A DNA stretch of 64,000 bases, taken from assembly GCA_947493885.1 (NCBI GenBank), contig CANLTE010000013.1:1772-65771 (forward strand), written 5' to 3'. This document shows positions 17,382 through 28,358 of the stretch, piece by piece (within the stretch, counting starts at the first letter, position 1; every line of letters begins with the position of its first letter). Source of the stretch: an uncultured Maribacter sp. (GTDB lineage: Bacteria > Bacteroidota > Bacteroidia > Flavobacteriales > Flavobacteriaceae). Below the pieces are notes generated by a model. That model saw only the letters and a list, made by a program, of their open reading frames with translations. It had not been told where the DNA came from and searched no databases. The position numbers and the translations under genes are program-made.

Positions 17382-17457
17382 GACCTGGTAGCTCAGTTGG
17401 TAGAGCATCTCCCTTTTAAGGAGAGGGTCCTGGGTTCGAGCCCCAGCCCGGTCACCA
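17382..17457 (+). tRNA. tRNA-Lys (anticodon TTT), CCA encoded
   Basis: 76-nt cloverleaf folded by hand. Anticodon stem TCTCC/GGAGA with loop CTTTTAA; T-arm CTGGG-TTCGAGC-CCCAG. Confidence 0.96.
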
Positions 17458-17461
17458 CTTT

Positions 17462-17488
17462 AAAGCCCCTCTCTAAGGGGCTTTTTTT
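17462..17488 (+). terminator. Terminator after tRNA-Lys
   Basis: AAAGCCCCT-CTCTA-AGGGGCTTT-TTTT. Confidence 0.88.
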
Positions 17489-17584
17489 ATTTCTGAAACT
17501 TATATGTTAAGAGGCTTTAAATAGCTTACTGGTTTTTGTACCTTTTTGCTCCGATTTTTTAATAATAATTCCAATCTGAAAAAA

Positions 17585-19609
17585 ATGAAACTTAAACTAC
17601 CTCAGGCATTACTTTGTGCAGTACTAACGCTAAACATGGTTAATGCTCAGCAAAAAGAGTTTTGGGCAATACAAAGCAATACCGAAATTAATTTAGACGT
17701 CACCAATAAGGATAATATACCCTACGGAGATAACATTGAAATGGCTGGTAAGCGTGTGGCCGGAATTATTTCTTATAAAATTGATGAAAATAAAAAACTA
17801 TCTATTTCAAGAGAAATATTCTTTCCCCAACTAAGAACTTTTATAAAAACAAATGACCCTGAATGGAAACATTATAGAGCATATTTTAAAGACGTTTACA
17901 ATGATGACATTCTTCCGGATATTATCATTGATGATAAAATATACGTTCCTGGAGATGTAGAAAAGGTTATTATAAATGGAAAACTGCAATTTAAACACGC
18001 ACCTGTTCATGGAATTGCTCTTACAAGAACTTTTTACCCATCAATGTCACAACGAATTTTCGTTGAAGAGTGGAAACTTACAAACCTTTCGGAAAAAAAC
18101 ATTACGCTTTTCGGGAATAACACCTATAGAAAAAAAACAACCAAAGGCGTAAAGGGAGATTATAATGGGATTTCTACATCCAACATAAAAAACAGTTTTA
18201 CAATTAAACAAGGTGCTTCTTATAGTTTCTCCATAGGAATATCAGCCACCTTAAATGAAGAAAAAGAAATAGACATAACTAGTAATGAATTTTTAAATGA
18301 ACGCAACGATTACCTAAACCAAATAAAAAGTTCATTAAAATTAATAACACCAAATAAAACCTTAAATACTCTATTCGAGTTTTCCAAAATTAGGGCCTCA
18401 GAAAGTATTTTCGAATCTAAACTCGGGCTTATACACTCCCCTGGTGGTGGTAGATACTATGTTGGCTTTTGGGCAAATGATCAGGCGGAATATATTAATC
18501 CTTTTTTTCCATATCTAGGTTATGAAACAGGAAACATGGCTGCCATAAACATGTACGATTTGTATACTAAAGAAATCACCGATGATTATAAAAATATTCG
18601 CTATTCTTTTGAAATGGAGGGGGATGCTCCTATTAACACTTTAGACCGTGGAGATGCTGCAATGATAGCCTATGGAGCATTACAATACGCATTAACTTCA
18701 GGAAGCAGAACCACAGCAAAAAAACTATGGCCACTTATATCATGGTGTCTGGAATACAATAATAGAAACTTAAACAATTTTGGTGTTGTTTCATCAGACT
18801 CTGACGAAATGGAAGGACGAATTGAAACTGGTAATGCCAACTTATCAACTTCTAGTCTGTATTATGGGGCACTAAACCTGGCTGTAGATTTAGCTAAATC
18901 GTTACAAAAACCAGAGCTTGAGGTTCAAAAATATAACCTGCAAGCACGGAAGCTGTCCGAAGCTATAGAATCCTATTTTGGAAGCAATATTGAAGGGTTA
19001 AATACCTACAAATATTATAAAGAACACAATCAACTCAGACACTGGATTTGTTTACCCTTAGTTGTTGGAATATTCAACAGATCAACAGAAACCACAAAAG
19101 CACTTTTTGAAAATTTATGGACTAAAAATGGTGTCCATGTCGAAAAAAATCACCCCAAAAAATCTAATTCTGAAATTTTTTGGGATAGAGGAACACTTTA
19201 TGCGCTAAGAGGTACTTACCTTGCCGGTGCTACAGAATTATCTACCCAAAAGCTTATTGAATTTTCTACAATTAGATTATTGGGAGATCGCGTACCTTAT
19301 GTCGTTGAAGCTTACCCAGAAGGCAGTATGGCACACCTTTCCGCGGAAAGTGGTTTATATTGTAGAGTTTTTACTGAGGGAATGTTTGGAATTATACCTA
19401 CTGGTTTACGTAGTTTTAAATGTACTCCTAGATTACCTAAAAGCTGGAACCATATGGCCTTAGAAAACATAAAAGCTTTTGATAGTAACTTTAATATAAA
19501 TGTTACTAGAAAGGGCGAGAAGCTTCAGGTTAAAATAACAGATAAAGACTCCAAATTAATTTTTGACAAAAGTATTCAACAAGGAGATACTATTAATATT
19601 GCACTTTAA
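17585..19609 (+). CDS. Secreted six-hairpin (alpha/alpha)6 glycosidase-like protein, family unassigned
   Basis: Signal peptide MKLKLPQALLCAVLTLNMVNA. Segments HSPGGGRYYVGFWANDQAEY, RGDAAMIAYG, SDSDEMEGRI, FWDRGTLYALRG and VVEAYPEG...HLSAESGLYCR resemble (alpha/alpha)6 GH barrels. Family cannot be confirmed without a search. Confidence 0.65.
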   Translation: MKLKLPQALLCAVLTLNMVNAQQKEFWAIQSNTEINLDVTNKDNIPYGDNIEMAGKRVAGIISYKIDENKKLSISREIFFPQLRTFIKTNDPEWKHYRAYFKDVYNDDILPDIIIDDKIYVPGDVEKVIINGKLQFKHAPVHGIALTRTFYPSMSQRIFVEEWKLTNLSEKNITLFGNNTYRKKTTKGVKGDYNGISTSNIKNSFTIKQGASYSFSIGISATLNEEKEIDITSNEFLNERNDYLNQIKSSLKLITPNKTLNTLFEFSKIRASESIFESKLGLIHSPGGGRYYVGFWANDQAEYINPFFPYLGYETGNMAAINMYDLYTKEITDDYKNIRYSFEMEGDAPINTLDRGDAAMIAYGALQYALTSGSRTTAKKLWPLISWCLEYNNRNLNNFGVVSSDSDEMEGRIETGNANLSTSSLYYGALNLAVDLAKSLQKPELEVQKYNLQARKLSEAIESYFGSNIEGLNTYKYYKEHNQLRHWICLPLVVGIFNRSTETTKALFENLWTKNGVHVEKNHPKKSNSEIFWDRGTLYALRGTYLAGATELSTQKLIEFSTIRLLGDRVPYVVEAYPEGSMAHLSAESGLYCRVFTEGMFGIIPTGLRSFKCTPRLPKSWNHMALENIKAFDSNFNINVTRKGEKLQVKITDKDSKLIFDKSIQQGDTINIAL

Positions 19610-19797
19610 TAAAAACCATAGCTAGCGGTATTTAGGTTCCATGTTAAATAATACTCTATTTTAACCTAAAAACAGAGCATAAATCGTTATTACTTACAAA
19701 AACGTGCAACAAATCGTTAAAATAGGTTAGTTAGTATATCAATATTATATCAAATTTTGTAAAAACTGACAATTATCAATTTTTAATAGCGGTAACT

Positions 19798-20964
19798 ATG
19801 AAAAAAAGCGAACTTCCTGATCCGTTTAAAAATGCCCGTGAGGAAACTGGTATTGGTGAAATGAATGACCAAAATGACCCCGTAACAATGCTACTTCGTC
19901 ATAAAGATGTTAGAAAAGGGGCTCACAATTGGAAAACTTTTCAATCGGGAGCTGTTCCAGGAAGAATTGTTGTTCCTTCTGAGGTTAATATTCGAGATTT
20001 ACGTCAAATTCCTTTTGAAGTTGACCCTCCTCAGCACGCCGATTATAGAGCCTTAATTGAGCCTTGGTTTAGACGTCCTCTAGAAGAATCTTACACAAAA
20101 AAACTTAACGACATTATAACCAAGGTTATTGACGAAGCGCTTATCCTGGAATCCGTTGAAGTTGTAAATAAATTTGCATTGCCGCTTCAATCCAGAGCAC
20201 TAACATTATTAATAAATACCCCATTTTCTGAATCTGAAACCTGGATTTCTTGGGGGACTCATGTTTTTAGAAGTGAAGGAGACCCTTTAGATGGAGATAA
20301 GGCTGAAGTATTATATACCTATTTGGATGAAAAAATTGAAGAGGCTATAAAAACCCCTTCTGATGATTTGTACTCCAAACTTGCTGAATCGGAATTTGAG
20401 GGTAGAAAATTAACCAAAGCCGAAATTAAAGGAATTATGGTACTGACCTTTGCTGGAGGTCGAGATACAGTTATTAATGCGGTGACAAACTCAATTGCCT
20501 ATTTTGCGGAGCATCCAAAATCGTTACAACAAATCAAAGAAAATCCAGAGATTATTAATTCGGCTGTTGAAGAACTTATTCGGTACTTTTCTCCATTAAC
20601 TCAAATGGGAAGGGTTGTTACACAAGATACTCAAGTATGTGAGCATGCAGCAAAAGCAGATACCCGTATTAGTTTATGTTGGGCCTCTGCCAATAGAGAT
20701 GATGCGGTATTTAAAAATCCAAATGAAGTTATATTAGACCGAAAAATGAATCCACATGTAGGCTTTGGTTTTAGCCATCATAATTGTTTAGGCGCAACAC
20801 ACGCTAGACAAATAATGCGGACATTATTAAAAACCTTATCAGAAAAAGTTTCAACTATTGATATTATTGATTTCGAAGAAAATATTGAAAACCTTGACCA
20901 GTTTAAAAGAAAGGTAGGCTTTCATAAAATAAACGTTAAATTCAATTCAAAAAAAATAACATAA
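19798..20964 (+). CDS. Cytochrome P450, CYP236A-like (sugar O-demethylase)
   Basis: I-helix AGGRDTV, K-helix EELIR, heme motif GFGFSHHNCLG. The N-terminus MKKSELPDPF... is of the type I recognise from Flavobacterial CYP236A. Confidence 0.85.
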   Translation: MKKSELPDPFKNAREETGIGEMNDQNDPVTMLLRHKDVRKGAHNWKTFQSGAVPGRIVVPSEVNIRDLRQIPFEVDPPQHADYRALIEPWFRRPLEESYTKKLNDIITKVIDEALILESVEVVNKFALPLQSRALTLLINTPFSESETWISWGTHVFRSEGDPLDGDKAEVLYTYLDEKIEEAIKTPSDDLYSKLAESEFEGRKLTKAEIKGIMVLTFAGGRDTVINAVTNSIAYFAEHPKSLQQIKENPEIINSAVEELIRYFSPLTQMGRVVTQDTQVCEHAAKADTRISLCWASANRDDAVFKNPNEVILDRKMNPHVGFGFSHHNCLGATHARQIMRTLLKTLSEKVSTIDIIDFEENIENLDQFKRKVGFHKINVKFNSKKIT

Positions 20965-20973
20965 AAATACGAA

Positions 20974-21282
20974 ATGGCAAAAATCACATTTATAACAAAT
21001 GACGACGAAAAAATAACTTTAGAAGGTGCATCTGGTTCCGTAATGGCACTGGCTGTAGAAAATAATGTTAAAGGTATTGATGGTGATTGTGGTGGAGTAT
21101 GTTCTTGTGCAACCTGTCATGTTCATGTAGCTCCTGAAGATATCGAAAAAACAGGAGAGGCAAGCGAAATTGAACTGGATATGCTAGAATTGGATGATAA
21201 TACCAATGAATATAGTAGGCTTTGTTGTCAATTACAAATCACAGATGCGCTAGATGGCATAGTATTGAAAGTAGCTAAATAA
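20974..21282 (+). CDS. [2Fe-2S] ferredoxin (putidaredoxin type)
   Basis: GDCGGVCSCATCHVHV...SRLCCQ. Confidence 0.95.
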   Translation: MAKITFITNDDEKITLEGASGSVMALAVENNVKGIDGDCGGVCSCATCHVHVAPEDIEKTGEASEIELDMLELDDNTNEYSRLCCQLQITDALDGIVLKVAK

Positions 21283-21287
21283 AGATC

Positions 21288-22532
21288 GTGAAAAAAATTT
21301 GTATTGTAATTGGAGCAAGTCATGCTGGAGTTAGTTTAGCTTTTTACCTTCGTAAAGAAGGCTGGGAAGGCGATATTGTTTTATTTGATTCTGATCCAGA
21401 ATTGCCTTATCATCGTCCACCCCTATCAAAAGCCTACTTAACGGATACTAATGATATTCAAAAAATTCAGTTGCGATCTGCAGAAAGTTACAAAGCAGAA
21501 AACATTGAGTTACGCTTAGGAGTTACTGTAAAAAAAATAGACCGAGCCAATAAGTGTATTGTACTTGCTGATAACTCCCAACAAAATTATGATAAGTTGG
21601 TAATTGCTTCAGGGGCACGACCAATTATTCCTCCAATTTCAGGAATAGACACCGCAAAAAATATATTCCCCATACGAACGGCTGCTAACATTGCCGAAAT
21701 ACGCAATGCACTATCTAAAAGCAAAACTAAGAAAGTGGTTATCATAGGTGGAGGTTATATAGGGTTAGAGGCTGCTGCTTCATTAAAAAAATTAGGAGCC
21801 TCGGTTACTGTACTGGAAAGAGAAAAACGCATTTTAGCAAGAGTAACGGCTCCTGAAATGTCTGATTACTTTCAACAATTACATTATAAAAATAATGTAG
21901 AAGTACTAACCACTAAAAATGTTACTTCCATTTCGCATGAAAATAATCAAAACATAGTTAGCTGTCAGGATAATACACAATACAAAGCAGATATTATTAT
22001 TGTGGGCGTAGGCATTTATGTTAACAAAGAACTTGCCGAAGATGCCGCTATTTTATGTAACAATGGAATATGCGTAGACGAAACAACAAAAACCAATGAT
22101 AGTAATATTTATGCCATTGGGGATTGCTCTTTCCATTACAACCCACATTACGACAGACACATCCGTTTAGAGTCTGTACAAAATGCTATTGACCAAGCTA
22201 AAGTTACTGCTGCATCAATTTGTGATAGACCTATAAAATATGACACCATACCTTGGTTTTGGTCAGATCAATATGATATTAAACTGCAAATGGTAGGATT
22301 ATCTCAAGGGTACAACCAAATTATTTTACGAAAAGAATCAGGAGAAGGTATTTACGGTGATAGTTTTTCTGTTTGGTATTTTAGCAATGACACTTTATTG
22401 GCCGTTGACGCTGTCAACAACGCCAAAGCATATGTTATAGGCACAAAATTTATCAAAACAAGCCAAAAAATGAATAAAGAAAAATTAGCGAACACAGAAA
22501 CCGTATTAAAACCCGTAAATTTAATCGATTAG
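21288..22532 (+). CDS. NAD(H)-dependent ferredoxin reductase
   Basis: IGASHAG, PYHRPPLSK, IIGGGYIGLE, IYAIGD, RLESVQNA, PWFWSDQYD. Confidence 0.95.
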   Translation: MKKICIVIGASHAGVSLAFYLRKEGWEGDIVLFDSDPELPYHRPPLSKAYLTDTNDIQKIQLRSAESYKAENIELRLGVTVKKIDRANKCIVLADNSQQNYDKLVIASGARPIIPPISGIDTAKNIFPIRTAANIAEIRNALSKSKTKKVVIIGGGYIGLEAAASLKKLGASVTVLEREKRILARVTAPEMSDYFQQLHYKNNVEVLTTKNVTSISHENNQNIVSCQDNTQYKADIIIVGVGIYVNKELAEDAAILCNNGICVDETTKTNDSNIYAIGDCSFHYNPHYDRHIRLESVQNAIDQAKVTAASICDRPIKYDTIPWFWSDQYDIKLQMVGLSQGYNQIILRKESGEGIYGDSFSVWYFSNDTLLAVDAVNNAKAYVIGTKFIKTSQKMNKEKLANTETVLKPVNLID

Positions 22533-22586
22533 CTTTCTGGAATAATTATTTACCTCAAATAACTTTTTCATTCCTCAATACGTTTT

Positions 22587-22594
22587 TATATTTG
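22587..22594 (+). promoter_or_regulatory. -7 promoter element of tRNA-Leu
   Basis: TATATTTG 15 nt before the tRNA. Confidence 0.75.
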
Positions 22595-22608
22595 CCTGCT
22601 ATTAAATT

Positions 22609-22692
22609 GCCCACGTGGCGGAATTGGTAGACGCGCTACCTTGAGGGGGTAGTGTTCTTTTGAACGTGCTGGTTCAACTCCAGTCGTGGGCA
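22609..22692 (+). tRNA. tRNA-Leu (anticodon GAG), CCA not encoded
   Basis: Acceptor GCCCACG/CGTGGGC; anticodon stem CTACC/GGTAG with loop TTGAGGG; long variable arm; T-arm GCTGG-TTCAACT-CCAGT. Confidence 0.94.
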
Positions 22693-22693
22693 C

Positions 22694-22728
22694 AAAACCA
22701 CTTTTACAATATTGTAGAGGTGGTTTTT
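22694..22728 (+). terminator. Terminator after tRNA-Leu
   Basis: AAAACCACTTTTACAAT/ATTGTAGAGGTGGTTTTT hairpin with G-U pairs. Confidence 0.8.
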
Positions 22729-22861: not shown

Positions 22862-22885
22862 TAAATTTGTTTAAGGTTTTACAAA
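22862..22885 (+). promoter_or_regulatory. -7 element of the regulator-crt operon overlapped by an inverted repeat (candidate operator)
   Basis: TAAATTTG at 22862-22869; TTTGT-N10-ACAAA at 22866-22885. Confidence 0.5.
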
Positions 22886-22890
22886 AAACA

Positions 22891-23793
22891 ATGAACAGAG
22901 TTAAAAAAACTTTTAGCATAAAAGATCTGGAAAATTTGTCTGGGGTAAAGGCGCATACCATACGTATTTGGGAAAAAAGGTACGGTTTGCTCGCACCTGA
23001 GCGTACAAAAACTAATATTAGGTTATACAGCCTAAGTAGTTTACAAAAATTATTAAACATTGCCCTTTTAAATGAAAATGGTGTTAAAATTTCTAAAATT
23101 GCCAAAATCCCCGAGAGTGAAATCGCGGAGCATGTAAATCAAATTACTGAACATAACCGCATCAAACTAAAACCATTAAATGCTTTTAAAATGGCAATGG
23201 TAAATTTTGATGAAAAACTATTTATTGATACTTATAATGAGCTTAAAAACAGTGAATCTTTTGAAAACGTAATTACCGATGTTTTTTTTCCCTTTCTCAC
23301 TGAACTTGGTCTACTTTGGCAAACGGACAGTATAAACCCTGCACATGAGCATTTTATCACTCATTTAATTAAGCAAAAAATAATTTTAGAAACCGAAAGC
23401 CTACAAACAATTACTCCTTCAAAAAACGACAAGGTTTTTGTGCTCTTTTTACCAGAAAATGAAATACATGAAATAGGGCTTTTATATTTAAACTATGAAG
23501 TAGTTAGGCGCGGATATAAATCTATTTACTTAGGACAAGCGGTTCCATTAAGCATACTAACCAATTTAAAAGCGCATTATAGCAATTTAATTTTTGTGTC
23601 ATACTTTACAGTTTCACCAACAAAAGACCAGATTGAAAACTATGTGAATGATTTTGAAACAACTGTAAACACCAATGGAACATTTGAACTGTGGCTTCTA
23701 GGACAACAAACGCAATACCTAGGAAAACAGAAACTACCTAAACATATAAAAACATTTACATCAATTGAAGAATTGACAAAAAAAATGGCCTAA
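22891..23793 (+). CDS. MerR-HTH / cobalamin-binding regulator (CarH/LitR-like)
   Basis: FSIKDLENLSGVKAHTIRIWEKRY (MerR HTH); W-x9-EH (WQTDSINPAHEH) and ExHxxG (EIHEIG). Start taken as ATG 22891 because the tracked TTG start lies inside the promoter. Confidence 0.88.
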   Translation: MNRVKKTFSIKDLENLSGVKAHTIRIWEKRYGLLAPERTKTNIRLYSLSSLQKLLNIALLNENGVKISKIAKIPESEIAEHVNQITEHNRIKLKPLNAFKMAMVNFDEKLFIDTYNELKNSESFENVITDVFFPFLTELGLLWQTDSINPAHEHFITHLIKQKIILETESLQTITPSKNDKVFVLFLPENEIHEIGLLYLNYEVVRRGYKSIYLGQAVPLSILTNLKAHYSNLIFVSYFTVSPTKDQIENYVNDFETTVNTNGTFELWLLGQQTQYLGKQKLPKHIKTFTSIEELTKKMA

Positions 23794-23803
23794 CCAATCA
23801 TTT

Positions 23804-25264
23804 ATGAAAAAAAACATTGCAATAATTGGCTCAGGGTTTTCGGCGCTATCAGCTTCATGCTATTTGGCAAAGGAAGGGCACAATGTTTTTATTTATGAAA
23901 AAAACGATGTCATTGGCGGACGAGCACGTCAATTTAAAAAAGATGGTTTTACTTTTGACATGGGACCAAGTTGGTACTGGATGCCTGATATTTTTGAAAA
24001 GTTTTTTTCAGATTTTGGTAAAACACCATCGGATTACTATGAACTAGAAAAACTAAGTCCCGCTTACAAAGTATTTTTTTCTGATGACCAAGTTGTAATC
24101 GAAGACCACCTAGATAAAATTTGTGTTGAATTTGAACGTATAGAAAAAGGAAGTGCAATTAAACTAAGAAAGTTTATAAAAAAAGCGCAGCAGAATTATG
24201 ATATAGCTATTAATAAAATGGTGTATAAACCCGGAATATCACCATTAGAGTTGGTTAGTTCGGACACCGTTTTAAGAATAAATGAGTTTTTTAAAAGTAT
24301 TAGCAAAACTATTAGAAGGCTTTTTAAAAACCCTAAACTAATTGCCGTTTTAGAGTTTCCTGTACTTTTTCTTGGCGCCAAACCTCAACAAACTCCTTCA
24401 TTTTATAGTTTTATGAATTTTGCTGATTTCGGGTTGGGAACATGGCACCCCAAAGGAGGTATGCATCAAGTTATATCTGCTATGCAAAAATTAGCAAAAG
24501 AACTTGGTGTTGTTATTAACGCAAACAGTTCTGTTAGTAAAATACATGTTCAAAATAAAAAAACAACAGGAATCACCTGCAATGATGCGTTTATTTCTGC
24601 AGATATTGTCTTAAGTGGTGCTGATTACCATCACGCTGAAACTCTTTTAGATAAACAATACAAACAGTATTCTGAATCGTATTGGTCAAAAAAAACCTTT
24701 GCTCCCTCCTCTTTACTATTCTATGTGGGTTTCAATAAAAAAATTGAAAAAGTAGAACATCACAATCTTTTTTTTGATACCAATTTTGAAAATCATGTGA
24801 ACACTATTTACGACAAACCACAATGGCCTAAATCCCCCCTATTTTATGCTAATTTTCCATCAATATCTGATGAAACAATGGCTCCCTCTGGATATGAAAC
24901 CGGCTTCTTTTTAATACCAATAGCACCTGATTTAGAGGATACTCCTAAGCTAAGAGAAAAATATTTTAACATACTAATAAACAGACTGGAAGAAAAGACT
25001 AGTCAATCATTAAAAAACAACATTTTATTCAAAGAGTCATTTTGTGTGAACGATTTTAAATCTGAATACAATTCATATAAGGGCAATGCCTATGGCATGG
25101 CCAATACGTTATCACAAACCGCTTTTTTGCGGCCAAAACTAAAGAGCTCCAAAGTAAAAAACTTATTTTTTACGGGTCAATTAACGGTTCCTGGTCCTGG
25201 AGTGCCCCCAGCATTAATATCAGGAAAGTTGGCTTCTGAACTTATTATTAACACTTTACGCTAA
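23804..25264 (+). CDS. crtI: Phytoene desaturase
   Basis: IIGSGFSAL, GGRA, FTFDMGPSWYWMP, GQLTVPGPGVPPALISG. Confidence 0.92.
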   Translation: MKKNIAIIGSGFSALSASCYLAKEGHNVFIYEKNDVIGGRARQFKKDGFTFDMGPSWYWMPDIFEKFFSDFGKTPSDYYELEKLSPAYKVFFSDDQVVIEDHLDKICVEFERIEKGSAIKLRKFIKKAQQNYDIAINKMVYKPGISPLELVSSDTVLRINEFFKSISKTIRRLFKNPKLIAVLEFPVLFLGAKPQQTPSFYSFMNFADFGLGTWHPKGGMHQVISAMQKLAKELGVVINANSSVSKIHVQNKKTTGITCNDAFISADIVLSGADYHHAETLLDKQYKQYSESYWSKKTFAPSSLLFYVGFNKKIEKVEHHNLFFDTNFENHVNTIYDKPQWPKSPLFYANFPSISDETMAPSGYETGFFLIPIAPDLEDTPKLREKYFNILINRLEEKTSQSLKNNILFKESFCVNDFKSEYNSYKGNAYGMANTLSQTAFLRPKLKSSKVKNLFFTGQLTVPGPGVPPALISGKLASELIINTLR

Positions 25265-25270
25265 ATTATT

Positions 25271-26110
25271 ATGAAAGAGATTTTTGATACGGTGTCATAT
25301 AATTGCAGTAAAATAGTAACCGAAAAATATAGTACAAGCTTTTCTTTAGCTACAAAAATGTTAGCACCATCAATTCGCACTGACATATATAATATTTACG
25401 GATTTGTACGTTTTGCTGATGAAATTGTGGACTCTTTTCATGATTATGACAAGAGTACCTTATTCAGCAAATTTGAAGCCGATTTAAATGAAGCTTTAAC
25501 ACATAAAATTAGTCTTAATCCAATTTTAAACGCCTTTCAACACACCTACCACCAGTATGGTATCCCTTACGAATTGGTTTCGTGTTTTATGAATAGTATG
25601 CGCGCAGATTTAACCAAAAAAGTATACACTACAAAAGAAGAATATGAAACCTATATTCATGGCTCTGCAAATGTGGTTGGACTTATGTGCTTAAAAGTTT
25701 TTGTAAAGGGTGACAATAAAAAATACGAAACCTTAAAACAGTCTGCCATGGCGCTTGGTTCTGCCTTTCAAAAGGTGAATTTTTTAAGGGATTTAAAGGA
25801 TGACTCCGAAATTCTAAATCGTGCCTATTTTCCAGATGTTAATCTAAAACAATTAAACATGGCTTCTAAAACAAAAATTGTTAAAGAAATTCTACTAGAT
25901 TTTGAAAAGGCATACAAAGGCATAAAATCCTTACCAACCGAAGCCAAATTTGGCGTATATACAGCGTACAGATATTATAAAAGACTATTGTTTAAGCTCC
26001 AAAAAACTCCCCCTTTACAAATACAAAATGTAAGAATTCGTGTTTCTAATCACGAAAAAATTAGCCTGCTAGCAAGATCGTATATCAAGTATAAGCTAAA
26101 TTTGGTATAA
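25271..26110 (+). CDS. crtB: Phytoene synthase
   Basis: YSTSFSLA, YGFVRFADEIVD, FQKVNFLRDLKDD. Confidence 0.94.
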   Translation: MKEIFDTVSYNCSKIVTEKYSTSFSLATKMLAPSIRTDIYNIYGFVRFADEIVDSFHDYDKSTLFSKFEADLNEALTHKISLNPILNAFQHTYHQYGIPYELVSCFMNSMRADLTKKVYTTKEEYETYIHGSANVVGLMCLKVFVKGDNKKYETLKQSAMALGSAFQKVNFLRDLKDDSEILNRAYFPDVNLKQLNMASKTKIVKEILLDFEKAYKGIKSLPTEAKFGVYTAYRYYKRLLFKLQKTPPLQIQNVRIRVSNHEKISLLARSYIKYKLNLV

Positions 26111-26112
26111 CT

Positions 26113-26568
26113 ATGAAGACACTTTTAGGCATATTGCTTTTTTTAGCCACATTTTGGGGTATGGAGTTTATGGCATGGTTTACGCATAAATACGTTATGC
26201 ATGGGTTTTTATGGAGCCTTCATAAGGACCATCATAAAAAAAACCATGACTCTTGGTTTGAACGTAACGATGCCTTTTTTCTTTTCTACGCCGTGGTTTG
26301 CATGACACTTTTTGGTTTTGCCAGATATACCGATTTCTGGTATGGTTGGCCACTTGGGCTAGGTATTTTGGCATACGGTATTGCCTATTTTATGGTTCAT
26401 GATATTTTTATTCACCAACGATTTAAATTGTTAAAAAAAACCAACAATTGGTATGCTAAAGGTGTTCGTAGAGCCCATAAAATGCATCATAAGCATATCC
26501 AAAAAGATGATGGTGAATGTTTTGGAATGTTAATAGTTCCTTTTAAATATTTCAAAAAAAATAAATGA
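26113..26568 (+). CDS. crtZ: Beta-carotene hydroxylase
   Basis: His boxes HKYVMHG, HKDHH, HDIFIHQR, HKMHHKH. Confidence 0.92.
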   Translation: MKTLLGILLFLATFWGMEFMAWFTHKYVMHGFLWSLHKDHHKKNHDSWFERNDAFFLFYAVVCMTLFGFARYTDFWYGWPLGLGILAYGIAYFMVHDIFIHQRFKLLKKTNNWYAKGVRRAHKMHHKHIQKDDGECFGMLIVPFKYFKKNK

Positions 26569-27254
26569 ATTCTCTTTATTTATGGATTAACCTTGGAGCA
26601 TTTTCATTACCATTTTTATATAGCTTTCATCCAAAATTAAAGCTCTATAAACAATGGAAAGCTATTTTTTTAGCCATTGCTTTAACCATGTGTTTTTACA
26701 TTCCGTGGGATATTATTTTTACGCAAAATGAGTTTTGGGGATTTAACCAACTATATTATTTAGAAAAAACTGTACTTGGTCTTCCCATTGAAGAATGGCT
26801 ATTTTTTATTTGCATTCCGTATGCTTGTATTTTTACTCATTACGCCTTACTTTTTTATTTCCCGAACCTAGGTATATCAAAAAAAGCTCTTAAACCATTA
26901 AGTTATACTATTGCATTCGCATTAGTTATCTTATCACTAATTTATCGCTCTAATTGGTATACAGCTATTAATTTTTTCTACGGAGGAATTCTAATTTTAT
27001 TCTGTGTTAAAACTAACCCAACTCTACTTCAAAGGTTTTTTATTACCTATTTAGTAATTTTAATTCCATTTTTCATTGTTAATGGTTTGCTTACTGGAAG
27101 CTTTATTCCCGAAGAAGTTGTTTGGTATAGCGCAAATCAAATTATAGGTATTCGTTTATTTACCATCCCAATTGAAGATACTATTTATGCGTTTACAATG
27201 GTGTTAACTAATCTATGGTTGGTTGAGTTCTTTAAAAAGAAGTTTACTCGTTAA
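26565..27254 (+). CDS. crtY: Membrane-type lycopene beta-cyclase (two-domain CrtYcd type)
   Basis: Two repeats of the P[IL]EE/PIED motif (LPIEEWLFF, IPIEDTIY); hydrophobic; in the crt operon. Confidence 0.85.
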   Translation: MNSLYLWINLGAFSLPFLYSFHPKLKLYKQWKAIFLAIALTMCFYIPWDIIFTQNEFWGFNQLYYLEKTVLGLPIEEWLFFICIPYACIFTHYALLFYFPNLGISKKALKPLSYTIAFALVILSLIYRSNWYTAINFFYGGILILFCVKTNPTLLQRFFITYLVILIPFFIVNGLLTGSFIPEEVVWYSANQIIGIRLFTIPIEDTIYAFTMVLTNLWLVEFFKKKFTR

Positions 27255-27801
27255 TTAACCTGCTTAATAATTCTCGAGTACTTTTACTATTCCAATTTAT
27301 GGCTCCCGTTTCCACAACTCTTATTTTACCTTTTTTATCAATTATATAGGTTGTGGGCAACAATTTAGAGTTTAAGGCTTTAGGTTCTTCTGTTTTTGAA
27401 TAGTAAACAGGAAAATTATAATTCTCTTTTTTTAAAAATTGATTAACTTTTTTATAATCTTCCTTTGCCACAAATACAAACTCCATTTTATCGCCATAAT
27501 CTTTATATAATTTTTGCATACTAGGTATTTCTGCGACGCAAGGCGGACACCATGTTGCCCAAAAATTTACAAGAACAACTTTCTCTCTTAAAGTTTCAAA
27601 ATTAAAATCGAATCCATTTAAATCAACAAGCTTCCATGAATAGCTTTTTAAAAGAACTTGTTCTTCTTTTGCTTCAGTTACACTTGATGCAAATAACCTA
27701 GAAACCTGAACCTTAATTTTAAACCCTAAAGGTGTAAAAAGTAAAATACAAATACTAACAATAAACAACGCATTAGATATTTGCTTCTTAGTCAAACGCA
27801 C
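27244..27801 (-). CDS. TlpA-family thiol-disulfide oxidoreductase (WCPPC)
   Basis: LVNFWATWCPPCVAE, LPTTYIIDKKG, N-terminal TM. Confidence 0.92.
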   Translation of the reverse strand: MRLTKKQISNALFIVSICILLFTPLGFKIKVQVSRLFASSVTEAKEEQVLLKSYSWKLVDLNGFDFNFETLREKVVLVNFWATWCPPCVAEIPSMQKLYKDYGDKMEFVFVAKEDYKKVNQFLKKENYNFPVYYSKTEEPKALNSKLLPTTYIIDKKGKIRVVETGAINWNSKSTRELLSRLINE

Positions 27802-27803
27802 TA

Positions 27804-28358
27804 TTATTCCTTTATAAGATTTTCCAATAAATTAGTTATTGTAGTATTATCCCAATCGGAAATTCCTTCTTCCTTTATCACAATACCTCCTTTTTTGTCA
27901 ATAAGATAAGACGCAGGTGCTTCCAAAATTTTAAAAGGTGCTTTTTCTCCAATTATTAAATAGGTAACTGGAAATGTAAATTTGTTTTTTTTCATAAACT
28001 CTTCTACAGGGGCTCTTTCTTCATTTGTGATTATATAAAAATCTACTTTTTCTTTATAGTTATCATATAACCCTTGAATACTTTGCAACTCTGCGAGGCA
28101 AGGCAACCTCCATGAAGCCCAAAAATTAATGAATACTACATTACCTTTAGATTTTTCAAAAGGAAAAAAGTTCCATTCGGCATCCTTAAGCTTCCATTCG
28201 TAATTTGGCAGCTTAATTCTATTGGATGCTGTAATAACCTCAGGTGTACCAGCAAATATTCTGTTTAACAATACTTTTCCATAAAACCCTAACGGAGTAA
28301 CAAAAAAAGCAAGCACCAGTATAATTAGAAGAACATTGAGAATTGTTTTTTTTCGCAT
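27804..28358 (-). CDS. TlpA-like thioredoxin-fold protein with an atypical WRLPC site
   Basis: INFWASWRLPCLAE, APASYLIDKKG, N-terminal TM. Confidence 0.88.
   Translation of the reverse strand: MRKKTILNVLLIILVLAFFVTPLGFYGKVLLNRIFAGTPEVITASNRIKLPNYEWKLKDAEWNFFPFEKSKGNVVFINFWASWRLPCLAELQSIQGLYDNYKEKVDFYIITNEERAPVEEFMKKNKFTFPVTYLIIGEKAPFKILEAPASYLIDKKGGIVIKEEGISDWDNTTITNLLENLIKE

Follow-up and report, generated by a model that had tools for sequence, protein, structure and literature searches.

The genes considered here lie within a 64,000-nucleotide stretch of DNA (the window) from an uncultured Maribacter sp. (GenBank assembly GCA_947493885.1, contig CANLTE010000013.1, positions 1,772 to 65,771 of the forward strand). 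At window positions 17382-22693, a tRNA-Lys gene and a tRNA-Leu gene enclose exactly four co-oriented genes on the plus strand. The left border is the tRNA-Lys gene (anticodon TTT, 17382-17457), and the right border is the tRNA-Leu gene (anticodon GAG, 22609-22693). These are the only two tRNA genes located in the window by ARAGORN, both on the plus strand, and Rfam agrees on both (67.5 and 51.6 bits, respectively) and reports no other RNA element in the interval. Judged by these searches and by open reading frames (ORFs) of 90 amino acids or more, the four genes are the only content between the two tRNA genes, in agreement with an initial annotation that was made from the sequence alone.

The first gene (17585-19609, plus strand) encodes a secreted protein of 674 amino acids when read from its ATG codon, although a TTG at 17546 is a possible alternative start further upstream. 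Its product belongs to an uncharacterised family with more than 6,693 homologs that carry the NCBI name ‘six-hairpin glycosidase-like protein’, and we hereafter refer to the gene and its product as GHL. A spacer (19610-19797) separates GHL from a gene (19798-20964) for a cytochrome P450 monooxygenase (CYP) of 388 amino acids, which carries the PF00067 domain, resembles the protein in PDB entry 6G5O and is a predicted 6-O-methyl-D-galactose (G6Me) demethylase of the CYP236A subfamily (‘mgd’). The last two genes encode the redox partners of this enzyme, namely a [2Fe-2S] ferredoxin (Fdx) of 102 amino acids (20974-21282; PF00111, Fer2) and an FAD-dependent ferredoxin-NAD(P)+ reductase (FdR) of 414 amino acids (21288-22532; PF07992, Pyr_redox_2, and PF14759, Reductase_C). 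The P450, ferredoxin and reductase genes are described collectively below as the triad.

The best solved relatives of the P450 are the Zobellia galactanivorans structures 6G5O and 6G5Q (E = 4.6e-202), with the next PDB match at E = 6e-42, and the protein is 74% identical to the P450ZoGa (CYP236A2) crystal structure 6G5O over 384 residues with no gaps. By the rules of P450 nomenclature, membership of a subfamily requires more than 55% amino acid identity to a named member, and the value of 74% therefore places the protein within CYP236A, as the initial annotation had proposed. The catalytic core is also present, with Cys330 residing in an FGFSHHNCLG segment identical to that of 6G5O, a GGRDT motif of the I-helix at position 220 and an ELIR motif at position 259. 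The residues that hold G6Me in P450ZoGa are V58, E62, R66, Q70, F73, G220, L267 and M270, and mutating them abolishes or cripples binding (Robb et al., PMC6292453). All eight contact residues and the heme ligand Cys330 are unchanged in the window P450.

The remaining members of the triad conform to the same picture. The ferredoxin retains candidate cluster ligands at Cys39, Cys45, Cys48 and Cys84/85, and the top NCBIfam models for the reductase are ferredoxin-NAD+ reductases. We compared this arrangement with 53 CYP236A loci from species-representative genomes, each taken with no more than 10 kb of flanking sequence. The gene order CYP-Fdx-FdR is found in 52 of the 53 loci, and the exception is cut by the end of a contig; counted separately, the ferredoxin gene comes after the P450 gene in 49-52 loci and the reductase gene after the ferredoxin gene in 52. 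The Pfam assignments and this gene order thus bear out the earlier view that the P450 is accompanied by its cognate ferredoxin and reductase. The triad is therefore another member of a well-known bacterial system, a standard CYP236A demethylase of the class I P450 type, whose predicted activity is the conversion of G6Me, a sugar of red seaweeds, to galactose and formaldehyde. Because the G6Me-binding residues are all identical to those of P450ZoGa, a different methyl sugar is disfavoured as the substrate, and we see no pointer in the sequence to any substrate other than G6Me.

A signal peptide read by eye, MKLKLPQALLCAVLTLNMVNA, stands at the N-terminus of GHL and is directly followed by QQ. 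Searches of Pfam (at E values up to 10), NCBIfam and PDB, the last by phmmer with the single sequence and with a 47-sequence profile, produced no match above threshold, and the description ‘unassigned secreted glycosidase’ in the initial annotation is therefore a fair one. Several sub-threshold candidates were discarded. Bac_rhamnosid6H reached its cut-off in only one homolog and GH65_C gave an E value of about 0.07, both of which we regard as noise. The match to the methylmannose-polysaccharide hydrolase MmpH (7QSJ), attractive in view of the methyl sugars considered here, was not significant (profile E = 0.91). A literature search on the family, or on the cluster of GH89, GH63, GH20 and GH88 (glycoside hydrolase, GH) genes in which its members are found, likewise gave nothing relevant.

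An AlphaFold2 model built with 47 homologs (pLDDT 87.7, pTM 0.89) predicts, from the N- to the C-terminus, a beta-sandwich, an (alpha/alpha)6 barrel and a second beta-sandwich. Foldseek returned 137 PDB matches for this model at E <= 0.001, and those listed are six-hairpin glycoside hydrolases and phosphorylases, including GH94, GH65, GH15-like, GH95, GH78 and GH63 enzymes and human PGGHG, all at approximately 10% identity. Among these, the GH65 alpha-1,2-glucosidase 7FE3 gives the best balanced match (TM-scores of 0.65/0.66), and GH94 phosphorylases score 0.62-0.66. Fifteen acidic residues are invariant in the family (D299, E302, E343, E345, D354, D357, D407, E408, E410, E520, D534, E575, E579, E588 and E598). 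A catalytic general acid and base of the barrel may be among them, although this list reflects conservation only. On the predicted structure, GHL would be a six-hairpin enzyme of an uncharacterised family within the (alpha/alpha)6 clan, and its export makes a hydrolase more likely than a phosphorylase.

Sequence comparisons also indicate that GHL is maintained. The only other genome in the genus to carry the gene is that of a sister, a 92%-identical uncultured Maribacter isolate, and both copies of the ORF are intact and retain every family-invariant residue. Between the two, the ratio of nonsynonymous to synonymous substitution rates (dN/dS) is 0.078 at a dS of 0.57, which is comparable to the ratios for the P450 (0.048) and the reductase (0.074). 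Among 248 alignment columns that are at least 90% conserved in the family, GHL departs from the consensus at four, which equals the family median. GHL thus seems to be a functional and unmodified family member in a new place; it is no pseudogene and has not been obviously retooled. Nevertheless, it might be argued that GHL is a stranded gene that is being lost and has no current function, given that it lies apart from every gene to which its relatives are normally linked, but the intact ORF, the low dN/dS and the full set of invariant residues make this very improbable.

The initial annotation had paired the two units as a minimal ‘release then demethylate’ module, and had named conservation of the linkage between the glycosidase and the P450 as a point on which this pairing would stand or fall. 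A GHL homolog lies near CYP236A in only one of the 53 loci, which is that of the sister genome (L003), and this result holds at E <= 0.01. Conversely, CYP236A lies beside GHL in none of 11 independent GHL contexts outside this lineage, and within the genus GHL accompanies the triad in two of the five genomes that carry the P450. The linkage is not conserved, and a functional pairing is therefore not supported.

The contexts in which GHL is typically found are different. Of the 11 outside relatives, 10 sit directly after an MGH1/GH63-like gene. Eight of the 11 loci have annotated surroundings, and these nearest relatives (57-70% identity), drawn from Zobellia, Arenibacter-like, Polaribacter, Maribacter and Flavivirga genomes and from three metagenome assemblies, all place GHL immediately 3' of the MGH1/GH63-like gene. 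GH20 is present in all eight clusters and NAGLU/GH89 in six, and the clusters variously add GH88, sulfatase, PL8, peptidase M60, GH92, GH31 or MFS transporter genes. The same tandem of GH63-like and GHL genes occurs in two further family-level genomes. Judging from these gene neighbourhoods, the usual setting of GHL appears to be one of hexosamine/uronate or glycoprotein glycans. The exception is in a Maribacter-like genome (L098, G105:C3:650000-669900), where GHL follows an S10 serine carboxypeptidase gene in a neighbourhood of S8, M1 and S41 peptidase genes with a fructosamine kinase gene, a setting that hints at glycopeptide rather than polysaccharide substrates.

The history of the interval can be followed in the GTDB genus of the window genome, which belongs to the Maribacter-like Flavobacteriaceae and comprises eight genomes. 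CYP236A is present in five of these and GHL in two, namely the window genome and its sister. In all five CYP-positive congeners, the triad lies directly 3' of aroK and tRNA-Lys, and its identity among congeners (76-77%) is similar to that of the flanking housekeeping genes (64-81%). The remaining cargo varies considerably. Before tRNA-Leu, a single congener carries rmlD, the triad, a sulfatase gene and a mutarotase gene, whereas two others have the triad followed by a sulfatase gene, a gene for a GLAA-B-type protein and more sulfatase genes. In one CYP-negative congener, a LacI-type gene is the only content between two tRNA-Lys genes and tRNA-Leu, after which redoxin and aconitase genes follow. 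The description of the interval as a tRNA-bracketed ‘islet’ was accurate to the extent that this is a genuine variable spot in the genus, whose content changed piecemeal, gene by gene. On the evidence of these comparisons, the triad is old in the genus and GHL the newest arrival, and the sulfatase and mutarotase genes were lost in the lineage of the window genome.

Two further observations concern the same interval. The GLAA-B beta-barrel/beta-helix and sulfatase cargo of the two congeners noted above (L077, 14296-16212; L078, 14300-16219) is of the sulfated-galactan type and is not present in the lineage of the window genome. In addition, the window genome and its sister have one copy of tRNA-Lys, whereas the six other congeners (L077, L078, L079, L095, L096 and L097) have a tandem pair of tRNA-Lys(ttt) genes, spaced approximately 95 bp apart, after aroK. 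In the window genome and its sister, GHL stands where the second copy would be.

The region immediately upstream of the P450 is also informative. Approximately 150 bp before its start codon, corresponding to the 3' portion of the spacer between GHL and the P450, align in all five CYP-positive genomes regardless of whether GHL is present, and this segment includes a TTTG at 19756, located 42 nt before the ATG. Given that the segment is conserved with or without GHL, the P450 may well have kept its own control region, and the spacer is a likely site for its promoter or operator. Sigma-70 promoter scans are uninformative for Bacteroidota, and the motif sought was therefore TAnnTTTG. The scan gave clear matches only before tRNA-Leu, which has its own promoter-like motif TATATTTG at 22587, and a TATATTTG before tRNA-Lys was read by eye; upstream of GHL and of the P450 there is only a bare TTTG. 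A terminator-like hairpin is located 3' of each tRNA gene. The first (17462-17484, plus strand), which is rich in G+C and followed by a run of T residues, directly follows tRNA-Lys and separates it from GHL, and the second (22694-22727) follows tRNA-Leu.

Most CYP236A triads are accompanied by additional genes that are not found between the two tRNA genes. The commonest arrangement over the 53 loci is a gene for an AraC-type regulator on the minus strand, followed by CYP, Fdx, FdR, an alcohol dehydrogenase (ADH) and an esterase, sometimes with GH2 or GH16 interleaved, and the published CYP236A neighbourhood agrees with this arrangement (PMC10033563). Of the 53 loci, 38 have a homolog of the ADH encoded by the window genome no more than 10 kb from CYP236A, 36 have one of its esterase and 38 have one of its AraC protein. 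All three genes are missing from the tRNA-Lys/tRNA-Leu interval, which by this standard does not hold a canonical CYP236A cluster. In the window genome they lie together on another contig (C4:261.6-264.6 kb), again with AraC on the minus strand and without the triad, and the zinc-dependent ADH encoded there is 74% identical to the conserved ADH neighbour of CYP236A.

These three genes are embedded in a much larger locus of agar/porphyran type (C4:259,000-290,000; loci L088 and L089). Around them are genes for a LacI-type protein, KduI, a 3-keto-disaccharide-hydrolase-like protein, a GH16-like enzyme and SusD/SusC, together with a RhaT-like transporter, a mutarotase, an MR_MLE cycloisomerase, an aldehyde dehydrogenase (Aldedh), an SDR protein and a second zinc-dependent ADH, and also an IclR-type protein, a GH43/GH117-like enzyme, a GH2 enzyme and another SusC. 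With assignments at the Pfam level, this gene set matches the one expected for agar/porphyran utilisation combined with the breakdown of 3,6-anhydro-L-galactose. Together with the identical G6Me contacts of the P450, the existence of this full locus, with its AraC, ADH and esterase genes, argues against the earlier proposal that CYP236A has been extended here to another substrate. Moreover, the ADH is present in exactly the same five of eight congeners as the P450, always elsewhere in the genome and always in the AraC(minus strand)/ADH/esterase arrangement. Of the evidence available, this shared pattern of presence and absence at separate places speaks most strongly for the triad serving the C4 locus in trans.

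We therefore consider it probable that the interval holds two unrelated units, namely a CYP236A triad that acts in trans with the C4 locus and a recently inserted periplasmic glycosidase, GHL, that is functionally unrelated to it. Under this proposal, the C4 locus and other GH16 and GH2 genes would provide for the cutting and import of porphyran or agar, and G6Me would be set free by the glycosidases of the C4 locus itself and would reach the cytoplasm. There, the reductase would hand electrons from NAD(P)H via ferredoxin to CYP236A, which would hydroxylate the O-methyl carbon of G6Me to give a hemiacetal that decays to D-galactose and formaldehyde. The triad has become detached from the AraC, zinc-dependent ADH and esterase genes throughout the genus and would still serve their locus from a distance. 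GHL, in turn, would have arrived as a single-gene insertion in the common ancestor of the window genome and its sister, between tRNA-Lys and an intact region upstream of the P450. Its most likely activity is that of an inverting exo-glycosidase, located in the periplasm and directed at a glycan of hexosamine/uronate or glycoprotein type, and it would thus operate outside the methyl-galactose route.

The fate of the formaldehyde can be constrained in part. A sink based on 3-hexulose-6-phosphate synthase (TIGR03128), an enzyme that belongs to the ribulose monophosphate (RuMP) pathway, was considered and rejected, as no protein reaches the family cut-off in any of the eight genomes of the genus. 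Some route other than the RuMP pathway would thus have to dispose of the formaldehyde released from G6Me. Published evidence indicates that the RuMP pathway serves this purpose in Zobellia and that F. agariphila differs (PMC9400963).

Several observations weigh against a strict separation of the two units. GHL lacks every one of its usual partners in this genome, in which MGH1-like, NAGLU and M60 genes are absent, yet it is under purifying selection, and it must therefore have some stand-alone role. The separate promoter of the P450 is inferred from sequence conservation only, and because the hairpin scan revealed no terminator-like structure among the four genes, including the spacer between GHL and the P450, co-transcription by read-through is possible. 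Finally, in a sample of one genome per genus from 150 genera besides that of the window, CYP236A and GHL are each present in eight and both in three (3/8 versus 5/142, Fisher p = 0.005). In the three genomes where they co-occur, GHL and the P450 are never adjacent: either their contigs differ or 34 kb lies between them, and their contexts are unrelated. These genomes are mostly large. We read the co-occurrence as co-residence in polysaccharide-rich genomes and not as coupling.

The same observations lend support to the view that GHL was recruited as a ‘release’ enzyme, such that the four genes form one operon in which periplasmic cleavage frees an O-methylated sugar (G6Me or another) for demethylation by the adjacent P450. 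The genes are co-oriented with no hairpin between GHL and the P450, GHL is under selection in its new context although its usual partners are absent from the genome, and the two families show a modest tendency to co-occur. Against this stand the linkage counts reported above and the three congeners in which this triad occupies this site and GHL is absent. Furthermore, GHL has no excess of substitutions at family-conserved positions and remains 57-70% identical to members in GH89/GH20 clusters, the pocket of the P450 is identical to that of the G6Me-specific enzyme, and canonical GH16, GH2 and GH117-like enzymes are encoded elsewhere in the genome. We consequently judge recruitment of this kind to be improbable. 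A more specific version, to which we assign a slightly lower likelihood still, is that GHL was captured beside the demethylase operon in this single lineage, is read through with it and works in the periplasm as an exo-glycosidase, setting free G6Me or another methylated residue from red-algal oligosaccharides that are refractory to ordinary GH2 beta-galactosidases. If this were true, GHL would provide the first activity for its family and a natural two-step demethylation cassette.

Another possibility is that all four genes were acquired together by horizontal transfer, as an islet integrated en bloc at a tRNA gene. Two tRNA genes do bracket the block, the content of the interval differs among congeners, and in one CYP-negative congener a LacI-like gene is all that it contains. 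However, the presence of the triad at the same place in all five CYP-positive congeners, with identities in keeping with those of the flanks, is consistent with vertical descent, and the distributions of GHL and the triad differ. The ORF and Pfam survey revealed no integrase among the interval genes, direct or inverted repeats that might mark an insertion of GHL were matched only at chance level, and the G+C content of the interval (0.34-0.36, versus 0.334 for the window) gives no signal of foreign DNA. An en bloc acquisition is accordingly very unlikely.

The upstream flank of the interval is of housekeeping character, with genes for tgt, an outer-membrane beta-barrel protein, an S4-domain protein, a phosphoribosyltransferase and shikimate kinase, and the downstream flank is a MerR/B12-carotenoid cluster. 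No SusC/D genes are present in these flanks, and the block thus lies outside any SusC/D locus, as had been stated in the initial annotation. The carotenoid cluster (MerR/B12-crtI-crtB-lycopene cyclase, 22867-27254) is located between tRNA-Leu and two redoxin genes (27244-28358). In congeners, the redoxin and aconitase genes directly follow tRNA-Leu and the carotenoid cluster is on another contig, which suggests that this cluster has also moved into the hotspot in the lineage of the window genome.

These genomes show that the demethylase can be located apart, throughout a genus, from the genes alongside which CYP236A is usually drawn, namely those for the regulator, the alcohol dehydrogenase and the esterase. 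This detachment is a caution for researchers who wish to infer functions from operon membership for partners that are still puzzling, such as AraC, ADH and the esterase. The GHL family is the more useful lead, as it is a large group in which no member has been characterised and for which a six-hairpin glycosidase fold is predicted with confidence. Together with its GH63-like partner, GHL is a candidate for a new GH family and an enzyme pair acting on hexosamine/uronate or glycoprotein glycans, and characterisation of this pair could define a new glycoside hydrolase family.

With regard to known systems, the interval resembles tRNA-adjacent islets in that its flanks are conserved (aroK with tRNA-Lys to the left; tRNA-Leu, redoxins and aconitase to the right) and its cargo varies among congeners. 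It differs from tRNA-associated islands in having no integrase, attachment-site repeats or compositional signal, and in a cargo that has changed one gene at a time. GHL shares with the six-hairpin glycoside hydrolases and phosphorylases of GH65, GH94, GH15, GH63, GH78 and GH95 a predicted three-domain architecture (Foldseek probability 1.0), but its structural identity to them is only approximately 10%, and neither its sequence nor its profile significantly matches these families or any PDB chain. CYP236A systems are known from Z. galactanivorans (P450ZoGa/CYP236A2, ‘mgd’) and Formosa agariphila (Reisky 2018 as cited in PMC10033563). Unlike these systems, the triad in this genus lies apart from ADH, esterase and AraC and is placed after tRNA-Lys, and in the window an unrelated glycosidase-like gene stands upstream of it. 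In its handling of formaldehyde, the genus resembles F. agariphila and not Zobellia (PMC9400963), as it has no true 3-hexulose-6-phosphate synthase of the RuMP pathway. Otherwise, the correspondence with the Z. galactanivorans P450ZoGa system is close, extending from the overall identity of 74% to the G6Me contacts, the heme cysteine, the I-helix motif and the CYP-Fdx-FdR gene order, and, as in Z. galactanivorans and F. agariphila, the genome also encodes the ADH, the esterase, the AraC regulator and the agar/porphyran enzymes.

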